NCBI GenBank assembly: GCA_016839705.1 | Contig: JAEOTR010000030.1 | Span: 1 to 64,000 of the forward strand | Length of the DNA: 64,000 bases | Source of the DNA: Promethearchaeota archaeon | Lineage (GTDB): Archaea; Asgardarchaeota; Lokiarchaeia; Sigyniarchaeales; SOKP01 | Direction of reading: 5' to 3' | Part shown: positions 1,400 to 62,716 of the stretch, in pieces | How positions within the stretch are numbered: the first letter of the stretch is position 1 | How the letters are laid out: every line of letters begins with the position of its first letter | The notes under the pieces: generated by a model | What the model saw: the letters and a program-made list of their open reading frames with translations, nothing else | What the model was told of the DNA's origin: nothing | Databases searched by the model: none | Made by a program: the position numbers and the translations under genes

Positions 1400-1451
1400 C
1401 ATTTTTAATTGTGATAAGTATAAACGGATTTATCAAGGGAGGAGAGGAAAA

Positions 1452-3029
1452 ATAGATACCGGCACTGATTTTATCACTCCTGAGTTTCTGAATGTGCTAT
1501 TCTTCCAACAGAAAAATCTAGTGATTTATCCATATGTTGATCTTAAGCATCTTCACGCTCTTGAAATCTTTACTGTTGGGCATAATATAGTGGATTTAGA
1601 ATCAACAGCACTTCATAATTTAAGAGAAATCTTAGAGTTTGAGTCAACTAATTCCTATTCGCAAGCTCCTTCGCTCTATTTTATCTATAACTTAGATAAA
1701 AGTAGAGTTAAAGAGGTTATGAGTCTTGATAACATCCGTTGTGTATTAAACGCTAGCGAAAACGTTTCTGAGTTAGTGAATGGCAGTAAATATGTATTTT
1801 TCAATAAGAAAAGCAACCAATTCCTTAATTTAGAAGAGAATGATCTGAGTTATGAGGAGTATCTTATTAATAATTCAGGAAATAAAGAAATTCTCCAAGA
1901 TCAAATTCAAAAAATTAAGATAATAGCATCAAAGATATTTACGGAACTCAATCAAAATAGCTCACCAGACTCAATTTCAAATCTACTACAGGAATTTGAC
2001 AGAAGATATTGGAAAAAAATCTTAGATTTTACAAAAAATTATTTTGATATTGAGATTCCAGAGATCTCCCAATTACATTTATCAAAAGATTCACATTCTA
2101 ATCAAACACTTAATGAAAAATTAAAAGATTTTTCAGAGGAATATAATATTCTTGTCTCTACAAATAAAAACATCGGAAAAGAGTTTATTCAGCTCTTACA
2201 TGATTATCGTAGTAAAAAAGTTAATCCATCTCATTTGGGACTTGAACAACTATTTAATCCTATGGAACTATACAATTACTTGAGAAACCATCACTGGAAA
2301 GAGGGTATTCCAGATGTATTCGTAAAAGAGTGGTCTAAAATGAAGCTCTCTCAATATCAATTTAACGAAACAGATCTAGCTGATTTTGAATTAATTTCAA
2401 GGAGACTAGGCTTAAACCCGTCGGTACCAACAATGGATAAAGATAGTATTGAAAAACCAATTGAGGTTAGAGATTACAAAATCCCTACCGAAGTCGAAGT
2501 GCCATCAGTGAAAAATTTTCCTGAATTTAAATTATGGGTTTTGAATAACCTTGACAAGATTGAAGCCTCTATTGGCATAACATCAAAACCGCAGCATTTT
2601 AAACAAACCTTAAACCATTCAATAACTACTGAACAATCCCAAACTAATAACAAACTGGTTGTTGATCTCACAAATATTTTATATGAAGATTTGGATAAAA
2701 ACGAGAAATTAAAAGCACACAATATCCTTTCTATTAGAGATACCCTTCTCTCCAAGGGATATAATCCTTTTCTTATAGTAGATGCTTCCACAATACATAA
2801 GATTGATGATGAAGAGCATTATAAGATGTTGGGAAGCAATGATATCATTTATCAGGCTCCCGCAAGACGGACTGCGGATAAATTCGTTTTAAAGTGTGCT
2901 AAAAACTGGAATTGTAAATTTCTTACTAATGATCAGTTCAAAGAATATTGGGATGAATTTGGTAAAGATTGGGTTCTTAAAAACAGAGTGACGTGCATGT
3001 TTATTGAAGGAGAGTTAATTCTTGATTAA
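1452..3029 (+). CDS. Multidomain protein with C-terminal Zc3h12a/Regnase-like NYN (PIN) ribonuclease domain
   Basis: C-terminal VVDLTNI...IVDAS...ADKFVL...LTNDQFKEY acidic PIN/NYN motifs. The ORF track starts at TTG 1380 inside mglA; an in-frame ATA at 1452 follows SD GGAGGAGAGG. Confidence 0.75.
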   Translation: MDTGTDFITPEFLNVLFFQQKNLVIYPYVDLKHLHALEIFTVGHNIVDLESTALHNLREILEFESTNSYSQAPSLYFIYNLDKSRVKEVMSLDNIRCVLNASENVSELVNGSKYVFFNKKSNQFLNLEENDLSYEEYLINNSGNKEILQDQIQKIKIIASKIFTELNQNSSPDSISNLLQEFDRRYWKKILDFTKNYFDIEIPEISQLHLSKDSHSNQTLNEKLKDFSEEYNILVSTNKNIGKEFIQLLHDYRSKKVNPSHLGLEQLFNPMELYNYLRNHHWKEGIPDVFVKEWSKMKLSQYQFNETDLADFELISRRLGLNPSVPTMDKDSIEKPIEVRDYKIPTEVEVPSVKNFPEFKLWVLNNLDKIEASIGITSKPQHFKQTLNHSITTEQSQTNNKLVVDLTNILYEDLDKNEKLKAHNILSIRDTLLSKGYNPFLIVDASTIHKIDDEEHYKMLGSNDIIYQAPARRTADKFVLKCAKNWNCKFLTNDQFKEYWDEFGKDWVLKNRVTCMFIEGELILD

Positions 3030-3715
3030 CCTTCAATGTTTATTTTATTTTTTTCAATTATCCAGGAGTCTATCAAAAATGTTTGTGCAGTATCCTTGTC
3101 AAGAGAATAATCAGATTTGATTGTAGATTTTGGAAACCAATTTTCCGCTCCGCTATTTAATTTAAGAAGAAGTGCCTTATCTGTATTCCCCGTAATAACA
3201 CCCTCAATTTTCTGAAGATTGCTTTCGCTACTGATTTCTTCTACAACGGTGAGTCCTGGAGCTTCTTGTTTCTTAGGTGCACTATTTTCTACAGCAACCT
3301 GACTTTTAGACATGTCAGAAATAGTGGCAAACTCAATTTTCTCTTCAAGAAGATGTACGAGCAACAGTTTTATAATCTCAATTTGAGCAAAACTTAACAT
3401 CTTGGGATAATCACCGATATTAAACCATATTTTGTTATCCCCTTCCCAACTGACAGAGATTGGTGTTTTATCCTCTCTAAAACTGTGAACGGTAGACCAA
3501 GATTTCATCTTTTTTTTCAGCACTTCAAGAATCATTACTACTTCTTCTAAACCAACCTTTATGGTTTTCCCTTCTCTGGTTGACAATTTTTCCCAGGATC
3601 CATCCCCCTTTTTCTTAATAAATTTCATAAAGATAAATGGTTCACTTTTGGAAGAGCTCTGAATAAACATTCCAGTAGATTGCCCAAAAAAACTTTGATT
3701 ATGAGTGTCTACTAT
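3026..3715 (-). CDS. Putative Whirly/PC4-like ssDNA-binding protein with a small C-terminal beta domain
   Basis: Beta-beta-helix repeat pattern (SWEKLSTREGKTIKVGLEEV); C-terminal TDKA...WFPKS...DSW domain. Probable ATA start at 3715 after SD AGGTGAG; first ATG at 3670. Confidence 0.55.
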   Translation of the reverse strand: MVDTHNQSFFGQSTGMFIQSSSKSEPFIFMKFIKKKGDGSWEKLSTREGKTIKVGLEEVVMILEVLKKKMKSWSTVHSFREDKTPISVSWEGDNKIWFNIGDYPKMLSFAQIEIIKLLLVHLLEEKIEFATISDMSKSQVAVENSAPKKQEAPGLTVVEEISSESNLQKIEGVITGNTDKALLLKLNSGAENWFPKSTIKSDYSLDKDTAQTFLIDSWIIEKNKINIEG

Positions 3716-3970
3716 TTTTTCTCACCTTTTTATTAAGTAATATGAATTTAATATGTTCAATCTATATAAAGAAAAAGAGAAAACTGATTTTTTGAAAAAA
3801 TTACTTCAGTTTATTTGGATTGTTTTCATAGAATTCTCTAAATTTTCATTGTCTTTTCATTTAAATCTGTGATCTCCCTTTTTTTTCTCACCTTTTATCT
3901 TAAATAAATGGGGGTTAAAAAATCTCTTGAGAGTATGTGGTAGATCTCATTTGATTTTCTCTTTTAAATC

Positions 3971-4861
3971 ATGAAATACACTTTATTAAATTATTTAATT
4001 CCGAAAATTGAATCTAAATCTGAATCATTTGCTCACAAAGTAATAAAAAAACTGCTTTATAAGAAGATTTTAGAGAATAATTCAAACATCATTGACTCAT
4101 CTTTAGAAAAATACTTTGAATCGCGACGCGCGGATGTATATTTTAAATTTAATTCAGGTCAAGAAGTAGCAATTGAGATCCAAAATTCTCCCATCACATC
4201 TAAAGAAATTACCGCTCGAACTAAAGACTATAATAATAGAGGAATCTACGTTCTATGGATATTATATGGATACGGTAGATGTGTTGGTTCACCTAAAAAT
4301 CCAAAACATAGAAAAAACTTGAAAATCTCTTCTGCGGAATTACGATTACACCAACTTTACAGAGGGAGAGTTTATTATGTAAATATTGTGTATGAAAAAG
4401 AGAAAATTACAGCAACATTACCTTTTGGGCTACATTTTACTAATTCTGACAATATCGCACCCATATTATTTAGAAAAAGATTTGAATCCTTTTTTGTTCG
4501 AAATGCTAATTACACATATATTCCAAATTGGAATCTTTTATGTACATCTCATAATAATTATAAGATCGCGCGCTTTTATGACCGGAATGCTAAAACTACT
4601 CTTGTTGAAAATTTAAGATTTTTTGCTAAGCGAAACAACCTCTTAAGAAATCAAAGAATTAAGAGTAAAAAAAACACCAAAAAGATATTCAAAGTAATAC
4701 ATACTTTATTTCAGGATGAATATGGGAAATTTTTCATTATAAATGCGATGAGGACATTAATCAGAAATAAAGAGTTAATGTTATCCGAGAAATTTATTAA
4801 TAAATTTGAGAAAAAACTAAAGAAGAAAGCTCAAATTAAGATTAAAAAACTAAAATTATAG
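3971..4861 (+). CDS. CoiA-like PD-(D/E)XK nuclease
   Basis: ESFAHK, RRADV, AIEIQNSPI, RTKDY...GIYVLWI motifs typical of the CoiA nuclease domain. Confidence 0.75.
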   Translation: MKYTLLNYLIPKIESKSESFAHKVIKKLLYKKILENNSNIIDSSLEKYFESRRADVYFKFNSGQEVAIEIQNSPITSKEITARTKDYNNRGIYVLWILYGYGRCVGSPKNPKHRKNLKISSAELRLHQLYRGRVYYVNIVYEKEKITATLPFGLHFTNSDNIAPILFRKRFESFFVRNANYTYIPNWNLLCTSHNNYKIARFYDRNAKTTLVENLRFFAKRNNLLRNQRIKSKKNTKKIFKVIHTLFQDEYGKFFIINAMRTLIRNKELMLSEKFINKFEKKLKKKAQIKIKKLKL

Positions 4862-5000
4862 CATAGATCAACGTTTACTCTCTTTTTACAACATCTCTCT
4901 CTCGAAGTCTTTTTTATGATTGCTTTATTTTAGATTATAATTGCTAAAAAGTATTAACAATAATATCTAATAATAAAATGTATTAATGGAGTCTTAAAAA

Positions 5001-6914
5001 ATGACAAATACAGAAGAGAAATCCATAGGTTCATTTCCAGAAGCAAAGATTTTAGAAGTAGATCTCACGAATAAAAAAATCTCCAAAAAAACACTCCCGG
5101 GAGATATATATAAATTATATCCAGGAGGTTCTGCATTAGGAGTCTATTTAATATTGCAAGAAATGAGACCTAACATAGATCCCTTTTCTCCAGATAATGT
5201 ACTCGTTTTTGCTGTATCTCCCTTTGCAGGATTACCAATAAGTGGTACAAGTCGATTGACAATTTCAACAAAAAGTCCATTAACTGGCGGATGTGGAGAT
5301 ACGCAAGCAGGAGGAGATTTCCCAGCATTCTTAAAAGCTAATGGATATGATGCAATCATCTTTCGTGGGAAGGCAGATAGCCCCCTCTATCTCTATATTG
5401 ATGGAGAAAAAGCTGAATTAAAAGATGCAAAAAATGCATGGGGGAAAATAACTGGAGAAGCTGAGGAAATAATTAAAAAAGAACTTGGGAGTAAAAATGT
5501 TGAAATTGCCCAAATAGGACCTGCTGGAGAAAACCTTGTGAAATATGCCTGTGTGATAAATAAATTGTCTCGGGCAAACGGTCGAAATGGTACAGGAGCA
5601 GTAATGGGATCAAAAAACTTGAAAGCTGTCGTAGTTCAAAGACAAAAAGCGATAACCCCGTTTGATAAAGAAGGATTTAATTCATTAACTAAATCTTCTG
5701 AAATGAAAGAAAGAATTAAAGGATTTACAGACGGATGGGGTGTTGGTGGAACGGGAACTTTCTTATATAACCAAAATAGGAGTGGTTTTCTTCCTACTAA
5801 AAATTACTCAGAAGGATATATGGAAGATGCACCCAAAATTGACGGCAGAAAAATGATGGAAACAGGGATTTTAAAAGGAAGAGAAACTTGCTATGCCTGT
5901 GCTGTGAGATGTAAAAGAGTAATTGACATTCCTGGTAAAGTTTATCCCGAATACGGAGGTCCAGAATATGAAACCTTAGCTACTTTTGGTACTTATTGTG
6001 GAGCAACTGATTTAGAGACTATTTGTTTATGTAATCAGTTATGTAACATGTATGGGCTTGATACTGTTTCTACCGGAGCAACTATTGCCTTCGCAATGGA
6101 ATGCTTTGAAAAAGGGATTATCACAAAAGAAACTACTGATGGATTAGATCTATCTTTTGGGAATCATGATGTTCTTTCGATTTTAACAGAGAAAATAGCA
6201 AAAAGAGAACGTTTTGGTGATTTTCTTGCAGAAGGAAGTAAAATATGCGCCGATAAACTTGGTGAAAAAGCAATCCCTTTGTTTATGGGTGTTAAAGGGC
6301 AAGAACTTCCTGCTCACATGCCTCAAGCTAAACCTGGTTTAGGTATTATATATTCTGTAAATCCATATGGCGCAGATCATGAAAGTTGTGAACACGATTC
6401 TATGATCACCATCCCAGGTAACCCTTTTAAGGGCAGAATAGATATGATAGGAGATTACCAACATTATACCGATCCGACCATAATAGATGAAAATAAAGTA
6501 CGATATATGTTCGCTAGTCAGTGTTTTTATTCAATGAATGATACATTAGGACTTTGCCAATTTGTATGGGGCATGGCTTGGCAGCTTTATGGCCCTGATA
6601 ACTTGTTAGATTTATGTAAATACGGAATAGGGTGGAATACTAGTATAAAAGAACTTCTAGAAGTTGGAGAACGCAGGATTAATATGATGAGGTATTTCAA
6701 TGCGCGAGAAGGATTTACGAAGGATGATGATAAACTACCGGAACGTGTATTTAATCCTGTTCCTGAGGGTCCTGGGAAAGGGATTGGTATAGATAAAGAA
6801 CAATTCAAAAAAGCTCAAGAAATATATTATAAAAGAGCAGGATGGGATGAGAATACTGGAAATCCCACTAAAGAGACTTTAAAGAAATTAAAGTTGGATT
6901 GGTTGCTTAGCTAA
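5001..6914 (+). CDS. aor: Tungsten-dependent aldehyde:ferredoxin oxidoreductase
   Basis: KSPLTG, IGPAGEN, GRNGTGAVMGSKNLKA, CYACAVRC, GPEYET, GLDTVS, GLCQF motifs. Confidence 0.95.
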   Translation: MTNTEEKSIGSFPEAKILEVDLTNKKISKKTLPGDIYKLYPGGSALGVYLILQEMRPNIDPFSPDNVLVFAVSPFAGLPISGTSRLTISTKSPLTGGCGDTQAGGDFPAFLKANGYDAIIFRGKADSPLYLYIDGEKAELKDAKNAWGKITGEAEEIIKKELGSKNVEIAQIGPAGENLVKYACVINKLSRANGRNGTGAVMGSKNLKAVVVQRQKAITPFDKEGFNSLTKSSEMKERIKGFTDGWGVGGTGTFLYNQNRSGFLPTKNYSEGYMEDAPKIDGRKMMETGILKGRETCYACAVRCKRVIDIPGKVYPEYGGPEYETLATFGTYCGATDLETICLCNQLCNMYGLDTVSTGATIAFAMECFEKGIITKETTDGLDLSFGNHDVLSILTEKIAKRERFGDFLAEGSKICADKLGEKAIPLFMGVKGQELPAHMPQAKPGLGIIYSVNPYGADHESCEHDSMITIPGNPFKGRIDMIGDYQHYTDPTIIDENKVRYMFASQCFYSMNDTLGLCQFVWGMAWQLYGPDNLLDLCKYGIGWNTSIKELLEVGERRINMMRYFNAREGFTKDDDKLPERVFNPVPEGPGKGIGIDKEQFKKAQEIYYKRAGWDENTGNPTKETLKKLKLDWLLS

Positions 6915-6950
6915 ACATCAGAAAGGAAATATTATTTTTCTTTTTATCTT

Positions 6951-7544
6951 TTAATTTAATACATTAACTAGTCTATTTTTGTAATATTTTTTTAAAATTA
7001 ATTGTAAAGCATTTTCAAAACAATCCAAAATACCTTCTCCCAATTTTGCGCTTGTATATCTTGATTTGATGTTTTTATACTTATTGATATTAATATCATT
7101 TAAAAAATTCTCAGGATTAAATTTCTCTTGTAAATCCTGTTTATTAAAAGCTATAATAATTGGAATATCTTCAATACACTCACTAAAGTATGAAAGAAGT
7201 TCTTTCCATGATATAATATTTCGCTCATAAGCTTCTTTTTGAGAATCTAATACAAAAATTAAACCATCTACAGCTCGTAGTGTAATTAGTCTGGTTATTA
7301 TGTAGAAATCCTGACCAGTCGTTGTATAAATATGAATTTTTATTTTCCACTCCTGATTTTGAAAAGTAACAATACCATAATCAAAAAATAAAGTCCTATT
7401 TACAGTACTTTCAATACTACAAATCTCCTCCTCCTTACCAAAAAGAGAAAATAATGTTTTTATTGAAGTCGTCTTTCCTGAAAGAGCTGGCCCAAAATAA
7501 ACAATTTTTATACTAATTGTTTTATCGATGTGATCAATAATCAT
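6951..7544 (-). CDS. Second MglA-family small GTPase
   Basis: IKIVYFGPALSGKTT, NRTLFFD, TTTGQ, AVDGLIFVLDS, NKQD, TSAK. Confidence 0.85.
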   Translation of the reverse strand: MIIDHIDKTISIKIVYFGPALSGKTTSIKTLFSLFGKEEEICSIESTVNRTLFFDYGIVTFQNQEWKIKIHIYTTTGQDFYIITRLITLRAVDGLIFVLDSQKEAYERNIISWKELLSYFSECIEDIPIIIAFNKQDLQEKFNPENFLNDININKYKNIKSRYTSAKLGEGILDCFENALQLILKKYYKNRLVNVLN

Positions 7545-7662
7545 ATCTATAAATTTACACCCAGATTTTTAAAATCCAATTTTTTCCAGTTTTTTCTTTA
7601 AATATCTTTGTTCAAATTCAGTGTAATTACCAAATATTTTATTATAGCATTGGAGGTTAAAA

Positions 7663-7716
7663 ATGGCAATACTTACCTTTTTAGCATTTTTAGGATATGT
7701 CATAATTGGAGATTAA
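7663..7716 (+). CDS. Possible 17-aa hydrophobic micropeptide or gene remnant (MAILTFLAFLGYVIIGD)
   Basis: SD GGAGG at 7652-7656 followed by ATG at 7663; almost entirely hydrophobic. Confidence 0.25.
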   Translation: MAILTFLAFLGYVIIGD

Positions 7717-7830
7717 TCGAAGGAAAGCATTACATAGTTATCCTGAGCTTTTTTTCACAGCTCCTCGATTATAACAATCATTTATGAAAAAAGTAATTGT
7801 TAAATCATATGCATTTGTGATAAAAACATA

Positions 7831-9435
7831 ATGATATATGCTGACCTCATCTTAAAAAACACCAAGATTATAAGTTTAGATGCCCAAGAATCGATATATC
7901 AAGCTGTGGCTGTAAAGTTTGGGAGAATAATCGCTGTTGGAAGCAATGATGAGATAGATAAATATGCGGGTAAGGAAACAAAAATAGTAGATCTCTTAGG
8001 AAAGACCGTTGTACCCGGATTCATTGATTCACATGGCCATTTTATAAATGAAGGTTCTTCTAAAGAGATATATGTTGATTTAAGTGAAGAAGCGGGAATT
8101 CATTCCATCTCTAATATACAAGAAATTCTTAGAGATAAAGCACGTCAAATACCAATTGGTGAATGGGTTTTTGGATATCAAGAAGATGATTCAAAGCTCA
8201 AAGAGAAGAGACACCCATATAGAACAGAACTAGATGAAATCTCAACGAATCACCCTATCTTAATAACTACCGTTGGTGGTCATTTTTGGATGGCAAACTC
8301 AAAAGTTTTTGAGCTCTCTAATATCACAAAGGATTCTCCTGATCCAAAAGGAGGGAAATTCGATAGAGATCCCGAATCTGGGGAATTAACTGGTGGTCTT
8401 CATGAGGAAGCTTATACCCTATTAAGACCTAAAGGACCACCCCAACCAACGCGTAACCAATCCTATCTAGGTGCTAAACAGATTCTGACCGAATGTAGTT
8501 CAGTTGGGTTAACGTGTATTTATGATTTAGTCGGTAGATCTGAAATCCGAGCAGCTATTGATTTAAAAAACAATAAAGAACTTCCGATAAGAATCAGGAT
8601 GGATATAACTATCGAACTTCTTGAAGAATTAGATAAACTTGGTATCTATAGGGGATTGGGAGACAATTGGGTTCGCATCTGTGGAATAAAATTCTTTTTT
8701 GATGGGGCAGTATCAGCAAGGACCGCAGCTGTATCAGAACCTTATTTAGACAAACCCAATTTTTTCGGAGTGATGTCGACCACTAAAGAAATAGCTACTG
8801 AATTACTTACAAAAGCTTACAAAAAAGGGTTTAGAATTTCCGCTCATGCAAATGGAGATCGTGCAATTACATTGTACTTAGATATTCTTGAAGATCTGCA
8901 AAAAAAATATCCGCGAATAGATGCTCGTAATAGAGATATCCATTGCAGTGTAATTAATAAGACATTAGTAAAGAGAATTAAAGAGTTAAAAGTACTTCCC
9001 ACTATCTTTGGTGCTTATCCATACTACCATGGAGATAAACTTATACCCTCGTTTGGAGCAGAAAGATTAGAAAATATGTTTGCTGCTCGTTCTTTTATGG
9101 ATGCAGGTGTTATGGTTTCAGCACATTCTGACCATCCCTGCTCCCCATTTCCACCTCTCATGGCAATTCATGCTTTAGTCAATCGAAAAACAAAAGCTGG
9201 AAAGCCAATTGGAACTAGTCAAAAGATAACCGTATTGGAAGCATTAAAACTTTATACAATCAATGCTGCATATCATTCTTTTGATGAACATCTTCTTGGA
9301 TCAATTGAACCAAATAAACTAGCGGATTTCGTTGTCTTAGAACAAGATATACTTACAGTTCCCCCAGGAAGAATAAAAGATATCCCTATATTCATGACAA
9401 TCGTAGATGGTAAAATTGTTTATCAAAAGCAATAA
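7831..9435 (+). CDS. Amidohydrolase family 3 (YtcJ-like)
   Basis: PGFIDSHGH, KFFFDG, HANGD, SDHP, GSIEPNKLADFVVL. Confidence 0.92.
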   Translation: MIYADLILKNTKIISLDAQESIYQAVAVKFGRIIAVGSNDEIDKYAGKETKIVDLLGKTVVPGFIDSHGHFINEGSSKEIYVDLSEEAGIHSISNIQEILRDKARQIPIGEWVFGYQEDDSKLKEKRHPYRTELDEISTNHPILITTVGGHFWMANSKVFELSNITKDSPDPKGGKFDRDPESGELTGGLHEEAYTLLRPKGPPQPTRNQSYLGAKQILTECSSVGLTCIYDLVGRSEIRAAIDLKNNKELPIRIRMDITIELLEELDKLGIYRGLGDNWVRICGIKFFFDGAVSARTAAVSEPYLDKPNFFGVMSTTKEIATELLTKAYKKGFRISAHANGDRAITLYLDILEDLQKKYPRIDARNRDIHCSVINKTLVKRIKELKVLPTIFGAYPYYHGDKLIPSFGAERLENMFAARSFMDAGVMVSAHSDHPCSPFPPLMAIHALVNRKTKAGKPIGTSQKITVLEALKLYTINAAYHSFDEHLLGSIEPNKLADFVVLEQDILTVPPGRIKDIPIFMTIVDGKIVYQKQ

Positions 9436-9450
9436 ATTTATAATATCGCT

Positions 9451-10545: not shown

Positions 10546-10713
10546 TGCTTATCTCTTAATTTGTGATCTATATTTTAAAAGATCTTGATTTCCATTAATC
10601 AATAAGTTTTTTTCACCTATAGATTATTAAACCGATATAGAATTTACGTTCTTATCGTACAAGGAGCGATATTAGTTTAAAAAAAGGGTAGTTTTATAAA
10701 AAATAGAATCAAA

Positions 10714-11556: not shown

Positions 11557-11753
11557 ATTCTTAATAATTTATTTATTCTAATCATATTTCTCATTAATTT
11601 AAAGAACAATTTTGTAGATTTGCTATTTTTAGAATACAAATAGAATGTAATTAAAGATTTATATAGTTTTATAGCTTATAGAATCTAGTAAAATATAATA
11701 TTTAATCCAATATTTAACCATAATTCAATATGAAAACCTAAAGGTGTATTATT

Positions 11754-13556: not shown

Positions 13557-13604
13557 AAAATTGAATTCAGGTTTATTCATTCCAATTATTTTCTCTCTTC
13601 TTTT

Positions 13605-18212: not shown

Positions 18213-18233
18213 TACCATCAAATAAAACCATTA

Positions 18234-18519: not shown

Positions 18520-20289
18520 CTACAGAATAATATTGATTCCTATTGCATTTGAAAGCACAGTAGCAAAGAATAATTGAATAATACTAAAGGAAATAATAAC
18601 AACAGGATAGAATGATTTTACGTTTTGTAAAATTTTAGTATTTTGAATAATTACCAATAGGAAAATTATATACATGAATAAAACACTTGGAAAATGAGAG
18701 ATACTCATTGATAGATACATCAAATTAATTATGGTTATCATAGATGCTATTATCAACACTCTATTCTTAGATCTTTCTGATTTTAAGTTTCTTAATTGAG
18801 GATAAATCACTTTTCGAAGTAGAATCTCAATTGATAAAAATACCGGGAATACCAAATATCCTAAAGTAAAATGAACAGCAAAATTAGAAGGCCAGATGAA
18901 ACCAAATGGATAATAAAATGTAAATATCATATAAATTCCTATGAAATATACTGTAGATATCATTGTAAATATAAGATATTTCAGATTAAATTGAGATTTT
19001 ATAATTTCACTTATTTTTAACTTACATCTCTCCTTTTTAGGTTTTTTAAAGTGAGTTAATAACTTTATAACCAAGTAAACAACGATGAGGTTTAATGAAC
19101 CATAAAGTATACCTTTTATGCCAAAAATTCTCTCAAATATAAACCAATTAAATAAAAAAGTTCCGAGATATAAAACTATCTTTAATATTTGGTTTTGCTT
19201 ATTTGAAACGGTTAATGAAACCTCTTGCTCTATTAAATCAGACTGCTTTGACTTATAATTTTTTCTAAAAAATATTCGACTGGATACTGAAATCAGAGAT
19301 ATAACGATTACGAATAATATGATAATGTTTAGGAAAATTAATACATAGTTTAAATAATAGGTGATAATAATAGGCCCATTTATTATTAAAGAATTAAAAT
19401 AATGGTATTCGAACCAATTAATGGATTTAATAAGAACTTTATTTGAAAATAATTGATGACCTCCACCTAAAATTGGTCCCTCTATCGGAATGACCGTACA
19501 ATCTGTTAAGTCTTTCGCTTTCAAGGCGTTTTCTGTAAAATCTAATACTTCATCTTCGATATGCATTATTACTAGTAAATTATTAGTATTTTCTTTATTC
19601 AACAGATTTACTGGAATGTAATCAACGAACTCTTCATTATACAACAACCCATATTTAGGGGGAATAAAATTTACTAATGGCGCTAATGCTACAGTTACTT
19701 TAAAGCGTGGATCTAAAGCTTGATTCATAAGTACAACCATTCCTCCTAGGGAATGACCTATTAACCCAATTTGCGACGAATTTATTTTAGAATAGAATGG
19801 AAAAGTTTCCAGCTTATCTAAAAGTCTTGAACAATCTTGAGCTAAAGCGGGAATACCTGTAATGGGATCGATGTTATTAATACTTCCCCCACTCTCACCA
19901 TGTCCTTGATAGTCTAATGCTGCGACATAATAACCTCTTTTGGAAAATTCAATAGGAATTCTAAGGTCAAAATCTCGTTTTGAGGCAATACCATGACAAT
20001 ATATTATTAATGGTTGCTTCTCTTGAAATTTTAACTTGTTTGATGGAAAATATAAATTAGCATAAAGCTTAGCCCCAGATGATTCAAATTGAATCCTTTC
20101 ATATTTAAAATAACTCTGAGCCCTATTGTAATTAAGAAAAGTTAAACTAATAATCAAAACTAAAGTAAAAAGCAATATTCTTTTAAGATTTTTATGATCT
20201 CGATGAGTCATTTCAAGTCCCACTATAAATTCAGTTTCTTCCAAAACAGATGATCCTATTTTTTTAACACCTCGGTTTTCAAATTTCAA
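18520..20289 (-). CDS. Alpha/beta hydrolase with C-terminal multi-pass membrane domain
   Basis: YCHG, DYQGHGESGG, GHSLGG, GGH; hydrophobic C-terminal half; true start may be downstream. Confidence 0.85.
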   Translation of the reverse strand: MKFENRGVKKIGSSVLEETEFIVGLEMTHRDHKNLKRILLFTLVLIISLTFLNYNRAQSYFKYERIQFESSGAKLYANLYFPSNKLKFQEKQPLIIYCHGIASKRDFDLRIPIEFSKRGYYVAALDYQGHGESGGSINNIDPITGIPALAQDCSRLLDKLETFPFYSKINSSQIGLIGHSLGGMVVLMNQALDPRFKVTVALAPLVNFIPPKYGLLYNEEFVDYIPVNLLNKENTNNLLVIMHIEDEVLDFTENALKAKDLTDCTVIPIEGPILGGGHQLFSNKVLIKSINWFEYHYFNSLIINGPIIITYYLNYVLIFLNIIILFVIVISLISVSSRIFFRKNYKSKQSDLIEQEVSLTVSNKQNQILKIVLYLGTFLFNWFIFERIFGIKGILYGSLNLIVVYLVIKLLTHFKKPKKERCKLKISEIIKSQFNLKYLIFTMISTVYFIGIYMIFTFYYPFGFIWPSNFAVHFTLGYLVFPVFLSIEILLRKVIYPQLRNLKSERSKNRVLIIASMITIINLMYLSMSISHFPSVLFMYIIFLLVIIQNTKILQNVKSFYPVVIISFSIIQLFFATVLSNAIGINIIL

Positions 20290-20451
20290 ATTTTGTGAAG
20301 CATCATTTATAATAAGATTAAAAAACTATTTAAATGTTTTCATGCTTTTTGAAATTTGGAAAAATATGCAATCTTGAATCTGTTATTATTTCACAAGTTT
20401 TGAAATATCAAAAACCTTTAAATATCCGTTTATTCTATATTTAATTAAGAA

Positions 20452-37998: not shown

Positions 37999-38113
37999 AC
38001 AGATCTTCTTTTCTTTTTTTTTTAACAAACTATTTAAAACTATTTAACAATATTGTAAGTAGTATTAAATAAACTTGGCTAATTAAGTTTCTACTTTAAG
38101 AGGTGAAACAATC

Positions 38114-38941
38114 ATAAAAAAGCCAAAAGAGAAATCTAATGATAAATTGAAGAATTATTTAGATTTAGCTGGAGTTATTCTTGTTGCATTAAATAGGGAA
38201 GGAACTATCACTCTATTAAATAAAAAAGGTTATGAAATCCTTGATTATAAGGAGGGAGAGTTAACAGGAAAGAATTGGTTTGATTCTTGCATTCCTAAAG
38301 AGAGTCGGGAAGAGCTTAAAAATGTATTTAAAGCAATTATCAATGGAGATTTAGAACCCTTTGAATTTTATAGCAATTCTATAATAACAAGTAAGGGTGA
38401 TGAAAGGATTATCTCCTGGCATAATGATCTATTATATGATAATGATGGAAATATTATTGCATCTTTAAGCTCAGGAGAAGACATAACAGAACTCAAGGAA
38501 ACTGAAGAAAAATTAAGAGAATCACAAGAAAATTTAAGAAGTCTTTTTAATTCAATTCCTATTGGAATTCATATGTATTACCTATATGAAGATGGGCGTC
38601 TAGTTTTTATTGGAGCTAATCCTGCTGCTGATGAAATTCTTACTGTCGATAATATGGAATTTATTGGTCAAACTATTGAAGAGGCATTTCCACCATTAAT
38701 TGAAACGGATATTCCAGATCGTTATCGTGAATTGGCTAAGAACGGAGGATCTTGGAAATGGGATCAATTTGATTATGAAGATGAAAAAATAAAGGGAGCT
38801 TATGAGGTTAACGCCTTTCAGATCTCCCCTATGTATATGGTCGCCACTTTTCTTGACATTACAGAGAGAATACAGACAGAAGATCAATTGAAGAAAAAGA
38901 TTATGACTTTGGAGGAAAAATTGGAAGAACTAACAAAATAA
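38114..38941 (+). CDS. Tandem PAS-domain protein without kinase domain
   Basis: Two PAS/PAC repeats ending in DITE, then a coiled coil. Probable ATA start at 38114 after SD GAGGTGA; track start TTG 38147. Confidence 0.8.
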   Translation: MKKPKEKSNDKLKNYLDLAGVILVALNREGTITLLNKKGYEILDYKEGELTGKNWFDSCIPKESREELKNVFKAIINGDLEPFEFYSNSIITSKGDERIISWHNDLLYDNDGNIIASLSSGEDITELKETEEKLRESQENLRSLFNSIPIGIHMYYLYEDGRLVFIGANPAADEILTVDNMEFIGQTIEEAFPPLIETDIPDRYRELAKNGGSWKWDQFDYEDEKIKGAYEVNAFQISPMYMVATFLDITERIQTEDQLKKKIMTLEEKLEELTK

Positions 38942-48503: not shown

Positions 48504-48543
48504 AGTATTTAATTCTGCTAAGGATATAACACTTTATTTTCCT

Positions 48544-51226: not shown

Positions 51227-51310
51227 AAAATTAATCTTCTTTTTTTTCTCTTTTTTGTTTAGAATAATTTTAAATTTAAAATCTGAGATTATATTGCAAG
51301 TGAACTAAAT

Positions 51311-52054: not shown

Positions 52055-52284
52055 TAAATAAATCTAAATTGCCATAAATCCACAGATAGAATTAGGGATT
52101 AGATATTTTATACATGGGAAAATCACCAAAATTTTAGCAGATAAGTTTAAATAAAATTAGTCGACTATTTTTGTGGTTTAACACGTTTGTTGATTTTGAT
52201 CAAAATTAGATGAATATATTGTTTTTAAGAATATTTAAAAATCGTTTATTATTAATATGATGAATTATGAGGTTAGTTGGCTAG

Positions 52285-53889: not shown

Positions 53890-54030
53890 CAGTTTTATCT
53901 TCAGTTTTTCGTTTTTGATTTTAGTAATAGCATTATAAGTTTATGAAGAACATATAATTCAATCCTTCCTTCTATTTCTATTTAAATTATTAATATAAAC
54001 TTTAAAAATGATATAGACAAGAATGAAATT

Positions 54031-55554: not shown

Positions 55555-55756
55555 ATTAAAATAATAGAGAATACTCAGTTTGAAATCCTAATTTCTTCCT
55601 TTTTTAAAAAGGAGGTAACTCCTCTAAAGGAAGTAATTTTATTCTTTTATTACCAGAAGCAAATTAAGATATTTTAAGCATTTTTATTCTTTCCCTATCT
55701 TACTATATTTACTATACCATCAACTATTTAGATTCCTAAACTAATATTAAGATCAG

Positions 55757-57610
55757 ATGGTAACTAAAATCAATACTATTAGAGAAGGAGGAAAAATAGG
55801 TCAAATTTTTACTCCAAATTATATTGCTAAATTTATTGTAAAAAACTTATTTGATTTTATTCCTAGCAAGGTTAGTAACCCTCAGACATTAAGGATATTA
55901 GAACCATCTGCAGGAGAGGGCGTTTTTATTAAATTTCTTTTAAAAAATGGCTTTTCAGATATTACTGCTTATGAAATGGACAGTACTTTGAAAAATTCCT
56001 TAGTAAAATTATATCCATCTGTAAAATTCAAATTCGATAATTTCTTAGGCTCAGATCTTAATGAAAAATTTGATATAATAATCGGAAATCCTCCCTATTT
56101 AGGTCAAAACTATAATGCTGAAATTTTTCAAAATTATGTAAGAAAATACCCTATTTGCGCTAGATATTTTGTAGGAAATATGGATTTATTTTATTTTTTC
56201 ATTCACTTAGGCATAGAAAAATTGAATCCAGGTGGACTTCTCACTTATATCACAACAAATTATTGGATTACTAAATCCCAAAAAACCGGTATAAAATTAT
56301 TAAAGCCACATATATTAGATGAATGTTTTCTGCTTCAATATATCGATTTATCAAACTTAAACATATTTGAAGCCGCAAGAGGGCAACACAATTGTATTTT
56401 CGTATTACAAAAAAAGACAGAGCAAGAAAAAATTAAAAAGATAAATAAAGATATTCAAATAATTCAAACCGTAAATGCAAATAATTCTCAAAAGATAGGT
56501 GAGCTTCAGAATAAAAAAATATTCAGAGATTTAATCCAAAAAGTAGATTCTAGATATCTAAAGAAATATTTTTCAGCATTAACAAATAACAATTTACAGC
56601 GAAATCATAATTGGAACTTAATCTACCCAAAAGAAGTAAAGGAGGTTGTAACCAAAATCGAAAATTACTGTAAGAAATCAAGAAAGGTTCTAAAATTACA
56701 AGATTACTTCATTATACGAAATGGGTTGATTTTGGTTAATGATAATATTTTTATCTTAAAAGAAGGTAAGGACTTAAAAATTGAAAACAACAGCTATTAT
56801 GTTCAAATTAATGGAGAATTTATCAAACTCAATGAATTTGAAAAGGAAAGACTTAAAAAAATATACAAAAGCAAATCTATTAAATCTTATGGATATAATA
56901 ACGATAGTTTCATAGGATATTTATTATATTTCAACAAAAGCGAATTTAATCAACAATCATTAATGAAGCGAAAAAAATCTCTTGAGGAGAAGTACCCCAC
57001 TCTCACTAAATACCTTAAACAATTTGAAAAAAAATTACGAAAGATCTTAATTAACGCTAAGGAAAATCCTGAAGATTTTTATTATCCAAGAAGAGGTTCT
57101 TTTATACGAAGAACTGAAGAAGATGGGAAAGATACTTTGGTAGATCTTGAACCTTTCTACGATGATGCCCAAAAGATCTTCTTTAAATTCATTTCAAATG
57201 AAAATATTTTTGGATACTCCCATGACTCCTACTATGCCACCTCAGATACGTATTTCCTCTGGCCTTTAAAAAATAAAAATACAGACTATTTATTTACCCT
57301 TGCGTATTTAAATTCAAAACTCGTTTACTTCTTATATAAAGCTAAAAACATTGTCATCAAAAGAAGTAAAACTAAGCTCGAACATGATTTAACTGTTCCC
57401 AACCTTAAAGCTTTCGAATCTACCGAAAAAAAGGGTATAGTAGATTTGATAAGAACTCTTTCTTTTCTATTAATAAATAACAATGAGAATGATCATGCTA
57501 TAAATACTATACAAAATATTATAGATACACTATTTTTTAAGCTCTTTGACCTAGATGAAATTATACTCAATAACTTATTAAGCAAATATTATAATTTACC
57601 GTTAAACTAA
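55757..57610 (+). CDS. N6-adenine DNA methyltransferase (Eco57I/TaqI-like), apparently orphan
   Basis: GQIFTP, LEPSAGEGVF (motif I), IIGNPPY (motif IV), YLNS in the C-terminal TRD region. Confidence 0.88.
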   Translation: MVTKINTIREGGKIGQIFTPNYIAKFIVKNLFDFIPSKVSNPQTLRILEPSAGEGVFIKFLLKNGFSDITAYEMDSTLKNSLVKLYPSVKFKFDNFLGSDLNEKFDIIIGNPPYLGQNYNAEIFQNYVRKYPICARYFVGNMDLFYFFIHLGIEKLNPGGLLTYITTNYWITKSQKTGIKLLKPHILDECFLLQYIDLSNLNIFEAARGQHNCIFVLQKKTEQEKIKKINKDIQIIQTVNANNSQKIGELQNKKIFRDLIQKVDSRYLKKYFSALTNNNLQRNHNWNLIYPKEVKEVVTKIENYCKKSRKVLKLQDYFIIRNGLILVNDNIFILKEGKDLKIENNSYYVQINGEFIKLNEFEKERLKKIYKSKSIKSYGYNNDSFIGYLLYFNKSEFNQQSLMKRKKSLEEKYPTLTKYLKQFEKKLRKILINAKENPEDFYYPRRGSFIRRTEEDGKDTLVDLEPFYDDAQKIFFKFISNENIFGYSHDSYYATSDTYFLWPLKNKNTDYLFTLAYLNSKLVYFLYKAKNIVIKRSKTKLEHDLTVPNLKAFESTEKKGIVDLIRTLSFLLINNNENDHAINTIQNIIDTLFFKLFDLDEIILNNLLSKYYNLPLN

Positions 57611-57688
57611 TCTCTTGGCGCTTTATCTCCTTATTTTTCAGAAACGATAAGTTTTTATAGATCATTTCGCATAATTTAATCATAAGTT

Positions 57689-57705
57689 GTCAATTAAAAA
57701 TTGAC
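57689..57705. promoter_or_regulatory. Palindromic operator candidate GTCAAT-N5-ATTGAC
   Basis: About 30 bp downstream of TATA-like TTTTTATA (about 57652-57659) upstream of hsp20. Confidence 0.55.
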
Positions 57706-57728
57706 GTTTGAGAAAATCAAGGTGGTAA

Positions 57729-58349
57729 ATGTTGAAGGATGATTTTAATGATTTTATTGAAAAGATAAAGAAACATTTTAAATTAGATTCAGATATGTTT
57801 GATATTGATTTTTTATTTCTTCCAGAATCTGAAATAAAACGAGGAAGAGCTCCTGATAATGATAAAATTAAGGGTTTTAAGATCTCATATCATTTTGAGA
57901 GTGGTATGGAAAAACCAGAAATAAAAATTGAAGGAAATGTTGATAATAAGAAGGTGTGGGAATATTTGAAGAATGCTGATTTATCTAAGCTCCCAAACGT
58001 AAGAGAACTTTATGAATCCGAACCTACGCAAGAAATTGATGCAAATTCTCTCTCTTTAGAGTCTTATGAAGAAGAGTATGAAGATGATGAATTATTATTT
58101 TTAGAACCCTATTCAGAAGTATGTAATAATGAAGGATTTACTGAAGTTCTCATAGAAATTCCTGGAATTGATCAAAAAGATGTGGAAATCAGTTTCAGAG
58201 ACAAGGGAAAAGAGTTAGTTTTTAGAGCAGTAAATGAAAACAGAAAATATATGACAACGGTGGCTCTACCGTTTCAATCATCTGAAGAGAATTGTGAAAT
58301 GGAAGTAAATAATGGATTAGCTATAATAAAATTGAGTAATTCTATTTAA
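57729..58349 (+). CDS. Hsp20/alpha-crystallin family protein
   Basis: EPYSEV...VLIEIPGIDQKDVEI...LP...NNGLAIIKL. Confidence 0.8.
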   Translation: MLKDDFNDFIEKIKKHFKLDSDMFDIDFLFLPESEIKRGRAPDNDKIKGFKISYHFESGMEKPEIKIEGNVDNKKVWEYLKNADLSKLPNVRELYESEPTQEIDANSLSLESYEEEYEDDELLFLEPYSEVCNNEGFTEVLIEIPGIDQKDVEISFRDKGKELVFRAVNENRKYMTTVALPFQSSEENCEMEVNNGLAIIKLSNSI

Positions 58350-58413
58350 AAATTAGATAATTAGATTTATTTATTGTAAATAACCTAATATTAAGTGAGG
58401 AGTTGAAAAAAGT

Positions 58414-60639
58414 ATGAGTGGAATAACTCGTGAATATAAAGGAGATGGGAAAAAAGTAAGAATTAGAGATGCCTATAAAGGTGATGCGGGGAGGGGTAGG
58501 ATCCGAATTGATCCTCTTGTAATTGAAGAGATGAATCTTAAAACTGGTGATGTTATTGAAATTATTCATTCTGTAGCGAATAAAAAAACCGCAGCATTGT
58601 TGTATCCGGGAAAAGATGAAGATAAAGGATCTAATTCTCTACGAATAGATTCTTCATTACGGCGGAATCTAAATGCTTCCTTAGATGATATTGTAGAAAT
58701 TCGTAAGATAGATGCAAGTTTAGCTGAAAGAATAACATTTGCGGGAGTAGAAGAGTCAGTAATCATAAGAGATCCAAACCGTTTAGTAAGGATGTTAGAA
58801 AATCGTGTAATTACTAAGGGTGATATTTTAAGTTTCAATGCAATGGGTAGAAGGATTGATTTTATAGTTGTTGATTATGCACCCAGAGCAGATGCTGTAC
58901 GGATCCATTTAGAAACTAAAATTACGATTTCTGAAAAAACTCATAAAGAATTAGAGGAATTAGAAGGTAGGAGAGTTACTTATGAAGATATAGGTGGTTT
59001 AGAAGAAGAAATTCAGAAAATTCGCGAAATGATTGAATTACCAATTCGACATCCTGAGTTGTTTAAAAGAATAGGCATCGATCCCCCTAAGGGTGTGTTA
59101 CTCCATGGACCACCTGGTACTGGAAAAACACTACTTGCTCGAGCAGTTGCGTATGAAACTGAAGCACATTTTATAACCATAAGTGGCCCTGAAATCATGA
59201 GTAAATTTTATGGTCAAAGTGAAGAAAATCTAAGAAAAGTATTTGAAGAAGCAAAAGACATGTCACCTTCAATTATCTTTATCGATGAGTTAGATTCAAT
59301 TGCTCCTAAAAGAGGTGAAGTTACAGGGGAAGTTGAAAGACGAGTTGTTGCTCAATTACTTTCATTATTAGACGGTTTAGAGGGAAGAGGTGAAGTCATT
59401 GTTATTGGAGCAACAAATCGGGTTAATGATATCGATCCCGCGCTTCGACGTCCCGGCAGATTTGATAGAGAAATTGAGATTGGGGTTCCCGATACTGATG
59501 GTAGATATGATATTCTATTAATTCATACTCGTGGAATGCCTTTACATACCGATGTTGATTTACGTCTCATGGCTGAAAAAACACACGGATTTGTGGGTGC
59601 AGACGTGGAAGCATTAGCAAAGGAAGCCGCTATGCTGGCAATAAGAGATATATTACCAAACATCGATTTAGATAAACCAATTCCACCGGAAGTGTTAATG
59701 GACCTTGAAATAGTTATGAAAAACTTTCAATCAGCATTGAATAGTATTGAACCTTCAGCGTTAAGAGAAGTTTTAATAATTCAACCATCTGAAACTTGGG
59801 ATGACATAGGCGGTTTAGAGGAAGCAACCCAACAATTAAGAGAAGTAATTGAATGGCCACTGAAATATCCAGAGCTATTCAATCATTTAAATTCAAAACC
59901 CCCGAACGGAATCTTACTTTTTGGCCCTCCTGGAACAGGAAAAACATTGCTCGCCAAAGCTTTAGCGCATGAAAGTGAGGTTAATTTTATTTCTGTGAAA
60001 GGACCAGAATTTTTATCCAAATGGGTTGGTGAAAGCGAAAAAGCGGTAAGAGAAACTTTTCGGAAAGCGAGGGCTGCAGCACCATGTATTATATTCTTTG
60101 ATGAAATAGATGCAATTGCTGGGATGAGGGGAAGATTTGCAAGTTCCCAAGTAACTGAGCAAGTGGTTTCACAATTACTCACAGAAATGGATGGTTTGGA
60201 AGGCCTAAAGGATGTTATTTTACTTGCAGCAACGAATCGGCCAGATATGCTTGATCCCGCTTTATTGCGTTCAGGAAGATTCGGCAGGCATATCGAGATT
60301 CCATTACCAGATAAAGAAGCACGAGTCGAGATATTCAAAATTCACCTGATGAATAAACCTTTAGCATCTGATGTCGATATTAGTCAAATGGCACAAGAAT
60401 TAGAAGGTTATACGGGAGCAGATATCCAGGCAATTTGTGAAGAAGCTACACTTTTAACTATTCGAAAAGCTGTATTAAATAAAAACATCACTACTCAAGA
60501 TGCCACTTCTCTAAGAAATGTAAAAATTTCAAACGCAGAATTCGAGGAAGCATCTGAAAAAATCTTAAAATCTGCAGAAAAAGCACGAGTTTCTCATGAA
60601 AGTTATTCACAAGAACCCTCAGAAGAATTATATCGCTAA
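58414..60639 (+). CDS. cdc48: CDC48/VCP/VAT AAA+ ATPase
   Basis: N-domain [10 protein letters not shown], two AAA modules GPPGTGKT, C-terminal HbYX motif LYR. Confidence 0.97.
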
Positions 60640-60685
60640 AATTGAAATCATTTCTATAAATTAAAAAAAAGGAGGAGAAATTCTA

Positions 60686-61474
60686 ATGGAATTGGAAGAA
60701 CAAGGTGGAGGAAAATTGTTTCTTAGTTTGGATAATTTATTAGAAATATTGGGAAACCCAACAAGACGAATTATCCTCTCTAAATTAGCTAAAGTACCAC
60801 TAGGTGCTTCAGAATTAGCAGCCTCATTTGGCACAAAGATTTCAAGGCAGGCGATACACTCGCAACTTAAAACGCTTACTGATTATAATATTATTGAAAG
60901 TATTGGCGAAGATCCAAGAAATATTAAATACAGAATTAAGAGTAATCTTTCTTTAAGAATTAATATTACTCCTGATTATTATAGTATCAAATATGATGTG
61001 TCTAAAATTGATGACTTGTCAGAAAACCTGAAACTAAAGGATATTAGCTGTCACGTTGATTATCAGAAAATTAATATTCCTAGTGAGAAACTAAGATTTC
61101 TGGGGGAAAGAATAAGAGAAGTTGAACAAAATATAAGTGAGTTAGAAGCTGAAAGAAATTCTCTACTCCGTACTAAAGAATGCTTTATAGTTGAGCTAAA
61201 AAAAATAATGATAGACCTATATGACAAAGACGTCAAAAAGAGAGAGCAACCGAATTTAGAAAAGGAAATCTTCTACACACTCTTTTATAATCCAATTAAA
61301 TATTTTAAAAGAATAAATATCGATACATTGCTAGATGATATTTTTTTCTCAGATATGGGAAATATAAGAAGAGCTCAAAATAGAATATCTGTAAATTACC
61401 TATTAAGAGATTTATCTAAACTGATGGATTTCATGTATGAAGATGAAGAAGATTTTTTCTTCTTTGATATATAA
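60686..61474 (+). CDS. ArsR-family wHTH regulator with coiled coil (Phr/HSR1-like)
   Basis: LGNPTRRIILSKL...ISRQAIHSQLKTL, followed by a coiled coil. Confidence 0.8.
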   Translation: MELEEQGGGKLFLSLDNLLEILGNPTRRIILSKLAKVPLGASELAASFGTKISRQAIHSQLKTLTDYNIIESIGEDPRNIKYRIKSNLSLRINITPDYYSIKYDVSKIDDLSENLKLKDISCHVDYQKINIPSEKLRFLGERIREVEQNISELEAERNSLLRTKECFIVELKKIMIDLYDKDVKKREQPNLEKEIFYTLFYNPIKYFKRINIDTLLDDIFFSDMGNIRRAQNRISVNYLLRDLSKLMDFMYEDEEDFFFFDI

Positions 61475-61507
61475 AAATAAAAACATAATTTTATTGAGGT
61501 AATCATA

Positions 61508-62008
61508 ATAGATTTCAACGAATTAAAAAAAAAAATGCCGGAAATTTTTGAAAAAGTAAAAAAAGATGTTCTAAAAACAACAGGAAGGAAAAGAGCCGGT
61601 CTTACTTTAGGATTAATCGAAATGGGGATGTATCAAGGTGGTTTTATTGGTGGAATGCATTTTTCTCCAGGAACGGATATTGTAATGAATAAAACTCCTT
61701 TAAAAATTCTCCTCGAACAGCAACCTTATGAAATAGTTTGGGCTTATACTTATCATATTCTTTTACATGAATATGTTCATTCATTAGGTGCCCTGAATGA
61801 ACATCAATGTCGAGATATTACCTTAAGAATTAGTGAAGCGATATTCAAAGAAGCTGACCATCCCACAATTATACTTGCAAAAAAAGGTATCGGTGCATTT
61901 TTCCCTAATTTACAGTTAATTTATGCGCCGCCAGATCTTAAGCCAGATGGACGGCCAATTGAATATATTGATGATTTTGACAGTGGAAGTTATGATTATT
62001 ATTCATAG
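61508..62008 (+). CDS. Small zincin-like metallopeptidase
   Basis: HILLHEYVHSLG..NE; probable ATA start at 61508 after SD GAGGT (first ATG 61535). Confidence 0.75.
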   Translation: MDFNELKKKMPEIFEKVKKDVLKTTGRKRAGLTLGLIEMGMYQGGFIGGMHFSPGTDIVMNKTPLKILLEQQPYEIVWAYTYHILLHEYVHSLGALNEHQCRDITLRISEAIFKEADHPTIILAKKGIGAFFPNLQLIYAPPDLKPDGRPIEYIDDFDSGSYDYYS

Positions 62009-62030
62009 AGTATTTTCCAATTAAATCACA

Positions 62031-62393
62031 TTATTGCTTTAAGCAACTGTTTAATATATTTATCAATTTCTTATGTGTAAAAGGTTTATCTAAAAATCCC
62101 ATTGCTCCTTGAAGGTAAACTTCCTCTTTTATTGTTTTGTCTGCGCTTGCAAATATTATTCTTGAAGTCTTATCAATTTCTAAGATTTCATGTAAAGCAT
62201 CAATCCCGTTTTTAATTGGCATGCGATAATCTAGTATAATGATATCAGGTTTTTCTTCAAATGATTTAAACATTTTTATTGCTTTATCTCCATTATTAGC
62301 AATTCCTAATACCTGAAATCCTGACATTTTTAGAAGTAATCCATATAATCTTTGAAGATCTCTATCATCCCCAGCAATAAAAATTGTTTTTAT
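62031..62393 (-). CDS. Single-domain response regulator (REC)
   Basis: KTIFIAGDD...PDIIILDYRMP..NG...ASA...FLDKPF; the N-terminal strand is only included if translation starts upstream of ATG 62327, most likely at ATA 62393. Confidence 0.9.
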   Translation of the reverse strand: MKTIFIAGDDRDLQRLYGLLLKMSGFQVLGIANNGDKAIKMFKSFEEKPDIIILDYRMPIKNGIDALHEILEIDKTSRIIFASADKTIKEEVYLQGAMGFLDKPFTHKKLINILNSCLKQ

Positions 62394-62716
62394 ATTAAAT
62401 CTCCCCCATTACTAGCAAAACGAAATTAGCACCTACGCATTATTTATCTTTTGCTCTATCCTTTACCCAAATAGGCCTGTTATTTTTCGGTATGATATAA
62501 TTTGATATTTTATTCGTACTAAACATTAGCAACATTAATCGTATTTATGCTTAACTTTTTAGTCATAAAAGTTGAAAGTTTTTTTCTAAAAATCAAATTT
62601 AGATAAAAATTGTGATATATTATCGAAAGATTTTTTTTCTCTTGTTTTTTAGATGAACCTAGAGAATCTTTTATTTAATTTTAATAAATTATTGAGAATC
62701 TATAATATCTGAACGA

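Follow-up and report, generated by a model that had tools for sequence, protein, structure and literature searches.

AUA, AUU, and AUC as probable start codons behind strong Shine-Dalgarno motifs in a family of Lokiarchaeia

In a 64,000-nucleotide stretch of DNA from a Promethearchaeota archaeon of the Lokiarchaeia, five genes most likely initiate at ATA, each placed a few bases behind a Shine-Dalgarno (SD) motif. The stretch, hereafter the window, is C9:1-64000 of a 3.36-Mb, 31% GC metagenome assembly from marine-sediment runs (completeness, 93%; contamination, 6.8%). The labels on its close protein relatives are mostly Candidatus Lokiarchaeota or Promethearchaeota. Homologs of these genes, a genome-wide count, and essential genes outside the window together make it highly probable that this family of Lokiarchaeia starts a few per cent of its genes at near-cognate AUH codons (AUA, AUU, or AUC; ATH in DNA), and occasionally at CUG, ACG, or GUA, with the SD motif setting the register and initiator methionyl-tRNA (Met-tRNAi) tolerating a mismatch at the third position. 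In this genome, some 60 to 90 genes most likely begin at ATA, ATT, or ATC 5 to 7 bases behind a strong SD motif.

RESULTS

Five genes in the window

A sequence-only reading of the window had proposed six ATA starts, arguing that no ATG, GTG, or TTG was available to these genes. All six ATA codons (1452, 3715, 7550, 38114, 61508, and 62393) are present, in frame with long open reading frames and behind SD motifs. At SD spacing, canonical codons are indeed lacking; elsewhere in the frames, however, they do occur (TTG 1380 and GTG 1494; ATG 3670; TTG 38147; ATG 61535; ATG 62327). The starts were therefore decided not by the absence of ATG but by alignment of each site with homologs from the same genus. 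By this comparison five of the six sites most likely are starts, and 7550 is not.

The first of the five genes (1452 to 3029, plus strand; 525 aa) encodes a protein with a C-terminal Zc3h12a-like NYN RNase domain (Pfam PF11977). Its SD motif, GGGAGGAGAGG (1437 to 1447, plus strand), faces a standard anti-SD, GGATCACCTCC, in the 3' tail of the 16S rRNA, of which the 3' end alone was located, at a contig end. Among 30 homologs, the 1452 column holds ATG in 20, GTG in 7, ATA in 2, and ATC in 1; the closest relative has ATC there, with a stop at -7 and canonical codons absent within 35 codons. The NYN ribonuclease domain is of the Regnase type, and many homologs match the N-terminal 375 residues only. 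The neighboring conserved gene of unknown function (3026 to 3715, minus strand; 229 aa) follows the motif AGGTGAG (3721 to 3727, minus strand) and has an in-frame TGA three codons upstream of its ATA and its first ATG 15 codons downstream; the column is ATG in 21 of 25 homologs, ATA in 2, and ATC in 2. A conserved hypothetical gene (61508 to 62008, plus strand; 166 aa) lies behind GAGGT (61496 to 61500, plus strand). Its column contains ATG in 22 of 30 homologs, ATA in 7, and GTA in 1, and the ATG at +9 is aligned to Ile in several homologs that start at ATG.

The gene of a stand-alone response-regulator receiver (REC; 62031 to 62393, minus strand; 120 aa), preceded by GGGGGAG (62401 to 62407, minus strand), had been singled out because its domain appeared to begin upstream of the first ATG. 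This is confirmed: positions 1 to 110 of the PF00072 profile match residues 4 to 114, the first ATG is at +22, and a start there would thus cut the receiver domain. The column is ATA in 22 of 26 homologs, ATT in 2, ATG in 1, and GTA in 1, two homologs have TAA immediately before the ATA, and the corresponding column of the paralogs is mostly ATG. The SD-like motif is retained in most homologs, while the spacer has diverged. Invariance of ATA at codon 1 was rejected as stand-alone proof, as certain Ile columns within the protein are no less invariant. In its acidic pocket this REC protein has Gly where nearly all homologs have Glu (AGDD versus AEDD). The check on ortholog N termini that had been suggested for such sites thus comes out in favor of ATA initiation, with mostly ATG in the columns of 1452, 3715, and 61508 and ATA or ATT in 24 of 26 for REC.

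The PAS-domain gene (38114 to 38941, plus strand; 275 aa), behind GAGGTGA (38100 to 38106, plus strand), has only ATH in its column: this genome carries ATA, and four relatives carry ATT. The PAS domain begins at residue 13 to 18; in one of the four relatives a stop lies at -5 and no canonical codon comes before +25, within the PAS fold. Of the five cases this one is the weakest, since in this genome translation could instead begin at the TTG at +11. None of the five would need translational coupling, as each is either separated by at least 34 nucleotides (nt) from any upstream stop or divergently oriented.

At 7550, the ATA was rejected as a start. An ATG follows two codons later at 7544, in a column that is ATG, TTG, or GTG in 25 of 25 homologs, whereas the 7550 column varies freely and contains a stop codon in one. 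The gene, which encodes a Ras/Arf-like small GTPase, has an ordinary ATG start (6951 to 7544, minus strand). A further candidate is an ATA at 20259 (minus strand), 6 nt behind GAGGTG, in an alpha/beta-hydrolase gene (18520 to 20325) whose TTG at 20289 has no SD motif.

Because these genes most likely begin at ATA, ATT, or ATC, standard gene finders misplace their starts, as had been foreseen: the public models are wrong for all five window genes and for the L7Ae gene described below. The models hold 98 of 120 aa for REC (the ATA form is absent), 157 of 166 for the 61508 protein, 214 of 229 for the 3715 protein, and 264 of 275 for the PAS protein. That of the 1452 gene is over-long, with 549 instead of 525 aa from a start at TTG 1380, and that of L7Ae is 34 residues short, with 89 instead of 123 aa.

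Genome-wide counts behind Shine-Dalgarno motifs

SD motifs, defined as unbroken runs of at least 5 bases matching the anti-SD of this genome (cutoffs of at least 4 and at least 6 were also run), were sought in the 5' zones of 2,522 genes of at least 120 codons. ATA, ATT, and ATC were counted in frame behind SD motifs without ATG, GTG, or TTG in range, and in-frame positions further downstream and out-of-frame positions served as backgrounds. At start spacing, 126 of 575 slots held in-frame ATH, compared with 11.6% downstream (P = 4e-9) and 7.1% out of frame (P = 6e-17); these P values are overstated, since several SD registers are possible per gene and the slots are partly dependent. With 67 slots expected, about half of the individual candidates are background. 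The excess amounts to approximately 59 against 312 canonical starts (16%), to 30 against 91 (25%) at the cutoff of at least 6, and to 88 against 728 at that of at least 4, or about 3.5% of genes. A genome-wide tally had been put forward as a check, and it supports the starts. It also recasts the claim that this lineage routinely initiates at AUA: AUA starts in five genes and a genome-wide excess uphold it, but the practice extends to all three ATH codons, and "routinely" comes to a few per cent of genes.

Observed and expected counts at the cutoff of at least 5 are 48 and 21 for ATA, 60 and 37 for ATT, and 18 and 9 for ATC, giving excesses of 27, 24, and 9. CTG, ACG, and GTA show minor excesses, and TTA (28 observed, 30 expected) and AAA (39 observed, 59 expected) show none. 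Behind SD motifs at the cutoff of at least 6 that have no canonical codon in range, ATA, ATT, and ATC take the top three places for enrichment among 58 codons. The spacing is narrow as well. Whereas ATG, TTG, and GTG peak over aligned spacings of 7 to 13, ATH fills 99 of 318 slots at spacings of 8 to 10, which correspond to 5 to 7 nt after GGTGA, and 49 of 480, the background level, at 7 and 11 to 13. The entire ATH excess thus falls within 8 to 10, compared with 60% of the ATG excess; AUG is spread over about 7 nt and AUH over 3 nt.

As a negative control we used 400 kb of Methanothermococcus, which is SD-rich and equally AT-rich (32% GC). Here ATH was observed 7 times, with 7.4 expected, and at the cutoff of at least 6 there were 0 ATH and 86 canonical starts (Fisher P = 2e-10 against this genome). 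Among Asgard genomes, each sampled over 400 kb, a second family gave 6 ATH with 2.3 expected (P = 0.06, under-powered). The ATH share was about 3%, not significant, in a distant genome whose aIF1 gene starts at ATA and 4 to 10%, marginal, in another whose aIF1 gene starts at ATG. Two other procedures were set aside: a tally of the first ATA per open reading frame, which is crude and gave a weak peak only and was replaced by the SD-anchored test, and an expectation-maximization model with 61 free start codons, which absorbed noise into AAA, GGT, and AGA.

Essential genes outside the window

Near-cognate use exceeds a handful of regulatory genes; the excess of approximately 59 to 88 includes L7Ae, ATP synthase D, and a NifU/IscU-type protein, and the list of ATH candidates is functionally mixed. 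The single-copy gene of the initiation factor aIF1/SUI1 (L134; C76:32251, minus strand) most likely starts at ATT: TGA and TAA lie in frame just upstream, canonical codons are absent for 54 codons, and the ATT stands six codons before the zinc knuckle. In 22 of 27 genomes of the family, spread over three genera, the gene has no canonical codon before the knuckle and has ATT or ATC there; in other Asgard families the start is ATA or CTG in several and ATG in others. In several Asgard families aIF1 is without the N-terminal zinc knuckle, like eukaryotic eIF1 (L143, L150, L152, L154, L157, L161, L164, L169, L141, L144, and L273).

In the L7Ae gene (L376; C82:1447-1815, minus strand) the start is ATT or ATA throughout the 12 of 12 genomes examined in the genus; a TGA lies in frame 2 to 3 codons upstream, and ATG does not occur until +34. 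In sister genera the start is ATG in 17 of 17 genomes. Similarly, the gene of A-type ATP synthase subunit D (L372; C56:41957, minus strand) has ATA here and ATT, ATA, or ACG in other genera of the family; such codons start it in 10 of 16 family genomes, versus a canonical start in 13 of 13 genomes of two other families. The NifU/IscU-type gene (L379; C85:74762, plus strand) has ATT immediately before the start of its Pfam domain. A neighboring NifU/IscU paralog (C85:74241-74642) contains an in-frame TGA within the match, possibly encoding selenocysteine, and the genome has a tRNA-Sec.

Homologs with ATH tend to carry the stronger SD motif. Pairing energies are -8.2 versus -2.7 kcal/mol for ATH and ATG homologs of the 3715 gene and -8.4 versus -4.5 kcal/mol for those of the 61508 gene. 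For L7Ae they are -11.4 kcal/mol in the ATT/ATA genus and -5.7 kcal/mol in the ATG sister genera, the SD motif being lengthened by TGAT. On the trees, two changes are required for 1452 and for 3715 and one for 61508, that is, few events rather than dozens.

Initiator tRNA and a possible mechanism

The sequence-only reading had also raised the possibility of a modified initiator tRNA, for which we find no support. The tRNAi gene (C76:9715-9842, plus strand) has a CAT anticodon, three G-C pairs in the anticodon stem, and an intron at 37/38. TiaS (PF08489) was found neither in this genome nor in any of 15 other genomes of the family, nor in families f2, f5, f14, f15, f18, and f23, while it is present in most other Asgard families in a sample of the phylum. 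An AUA-reading tRNA-Ile (CAU or UAU) was likewise not found in this incomplete genome. ARAGORN miscalls the tRNAi as a tRNA-Ser, and many tRNAs here have introns at noncanonical positions.

These data are consistent with the following sequence of events. A strong SD motif, mostly of the GGTGA(T) type, would pair with the 16S tail and fix the register of the mRNA, as motifs and statistics suggest. The codon 5 to 7 nt downstream would then enter the P site, AUH being limited, on the statistical evidence, to the 3-nt window. There, ordinary Met-tRNAi (CAU) would pair with two bases and the third mismatch would be accepted, so that the protein begins with Met. Start proofreading by aIF1/aIF2 is presumably lax, and must be fairly so given that even abundant proteins, L7Ae and ATP synthase D, appear to be made from AUH. 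A change from ATG to ATH would be tolerated where the SD motif is strong already or has been strengthened. Finally, by analogy, aIF1 could itself set the level of laxity. As aIF1 excludes AUU in other archaea (PMC4705826, PMC6237735), an AUU start on its own gene would close a negative feedback loop like those of infC and eIF1, a proposal to which we give about an even chance.

DISCUSSION

Several points weigh against this explanation. The case is built from sequence comparison and statistics, with the slot P values inflated as explained above. The P values for SD compensation are overstated too, because relatives are not independent and each gene underwent 1 to 2 changes, and in the 1452 set compensation is not significant (P = 0.1). 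In 400 kb sampled from another genome of the genus, a test of low power, no excess was seen (8 ATH, 7.8 expected), although the REC gene there begins at ATA. For the 74 genes whose ATG start is conserved in that genome, no clear switch to ATH was found here. The high ATH rate may be limited in its extent beyond this genome. Nor is there an obvious molecular cause: the basic loop of aIF1 has the Asgard-wide RKWG motif, with no family-specific lesion found, and the tRNAi gene has no lesion that would account for the laxity.

The simplest competing explanation is that the real starts are the nearest ATG, GTG, or TTG, downstream or, as at 1380, upstream, and that ATH codons are isoleucine or spacer codons behind chance purine runs in an AT-rich genome. 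This is correct for 7550, it could hold for 38114 with its TTG at +11, and it accounts for the half of the SD-anchored ATH slots that are background; moreover, the literature calls SD motifs rare in Lokiarchaea (PMC12993045, PMC7531240). As a general account we judge it improbable. REC would lose its first strand and acidic pocket, L7Ae 34 residues, and aIF1 its zinc knuckle. Conservation sets in sharply at the ATH column, and many homologs have an in-frame stop 1 to 3 codons upstream of it; the ATH peak is also absent from the AT-rich control. Still less likely, in our view, is decoding specific to AUA, through a modified tRNAi (with an agmatidine-like C34), translation of AUA as Met, known from animal mitochondria, or A-to-I editing of AUA in the mRNA. 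ATA is overrepresented for its codon use, with an excess of 27 against 24 for the commoner ATT, and the AUA-decoding system of the order is atypical, TiaS not having been found. Yet ATT and ATC starts, which none of these mechanisms produces, are equally real, and internal ATA aligns, in comparison with three outgroups, with Ile in 45 to 47% of cases and with Met in about 2%, the same as ATT and ATC. The agmatidine route in particular is unlikely, because its enzyme was not found in this genome or in 15 others of the family, the tRNAi gene is standard, and ATT and ATC starts would be left unexplained anyway. In a metagenome assembly with 6.8% contamination, one might suspect G>A errors of sequencing or assembly, or mutations that recently inactivated the genes, but the chance that they explain these sites is minute. 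Contigs of three runs of one study match 1452, and those of two match 3715, with zero differences. Because the source sample may be among these runs, recurrence is the stronger argument: as many as 24 other species have ATA or ATT/ATC with frames intact.

A regulatory explanation, compatible with SD-directed near-cognate initiation, is that AUH genes form a stringency-sensing set. aIF1 would repress its own AUU start and so limit its synthesis, proofreading would be held at a low set point, and dozens of AUH genes, those for a ribosomal protein and an ATP synthase subunit among them, would follow aIF1 activity. In its favor are the conservation of a noncanonical aIF1 start in three genera of the family, with ATA or CTG in other Asgard families, the genus-wide retention of ATA/ATT in the REC gene, and precedents elsewhere, as AUU is disfavored by aIF1 of Sulfolobus solfataricus and autoregulation of this kind is known for IF3 and eIF1 (PMC4705826). 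Against it, other genes flip among ATG, GTG, and ATH in close relatives, which resembles drift that is tolerated and compensated by the SD motif. The candidates share no common function, and the 400-kb samples of two distant Asgard genomes showed no link between the aIF1 start codon and the genome-wide ATH rate. We regard such a circuit as less likely than not. If true, it would be an archaeal counterpart of infC/eIF1 autoregulation in the phylum nearest eukaryotes.

The near-cognate starts proposed here have bacterial parallels. In Escherichia coli, infC and pcnB start at AUU. In Staphylococcus aureus, infC, cvfC1, ccpN, and citZ have AUU or AUA starts with extended SD motifs, and the three of these four sites that were tested gave 10 to 30% of AUG output (PMC13009471); Deinococcus has four such sites, including dnaA (ATC) and infC (ATA) (PMC2830850). 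As in these infC-type starts, a strong or extended SD motif positions a codon that is near-cognate at the third base; the codon is conserved and missed by annotation, and the gene of the fidelity factor itself is among those that start this way. Three features of the infC/pcnB type recur here, with ATH at SD spacing, a conserved N terminus at 1452, 3715, 61508, and 62393, and a stronger SD motif at 3715, 61508, and L7Ae. By this analogy, AUH starts in this genome work like bacterial SD-directed ones and differ in domain, scale, and the housekeeping genes involved. The factors are archaeal aIF1/aIF2 and not IF3, about 60 to 90 genes are concerned versus about four per genome, abundant housekeeping proteins are among them, and they are known here from sequence.

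The start of aIF1 itself, conserved in the family, is of a kind that archaeal aIF1 disfavors (PMC4705826). Autoregulation of eIF1 through a poor start context is described in Ivanov 2010, as cited in PMC6237735 and PMC4705826. The likeness lies in a homologous SUI1-family factor whose start is of the kind that it discriminates against; however, eIF1 has an AUG in weak Kozak context under scanning, whereas aIF1 here would have a non-AUG codon behind an SD motif, with putative feedback. The probable AUU start of aIF1 offers a direct test case for IF3/eIF1-like autoregulation.

Mitochondria initiate at ATA, ATT, and ATC, and the genome resembles them in that all ATN codons appear usable as starts. 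Unlike mitochondria, it has no reassignment of AUA to Met in elongation, depends on SD motifs, and uses such starts in a minority of genes. With other archaea it shares SD-led initiation with weak first-position variants, seen in the TTG and GTG peaks. Reviews of archaeal initiation list AUG, GUG, and UUG only (PMC7531240) and describe SD motifs in Loki as not prevalent (PMC7531240, PMC12993045), and our literature search found no paper describing AUH main starts in archaea. In Haloferax, ribosome profiling detected near-cognate alternative starts, which were set aside as possible false positives (PMC7261190). Unlike those alternative starts, AUH here would be the main start of conserved genes. 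The view that SD motifs are rare in Lokiarchaea is partly qualified by our data, as miscalled starts hide some of the strongest motifs.

Wrong Loki protein models affect domain annotation, structure prediction, proteomics, and phylogenomics. With up to a quarter of strong-SD genes at AUH, essential and abundant proteins among them, start stringency would vary among Asgard archaea, the group that gave rise to the much stricter eukaryotic start system.

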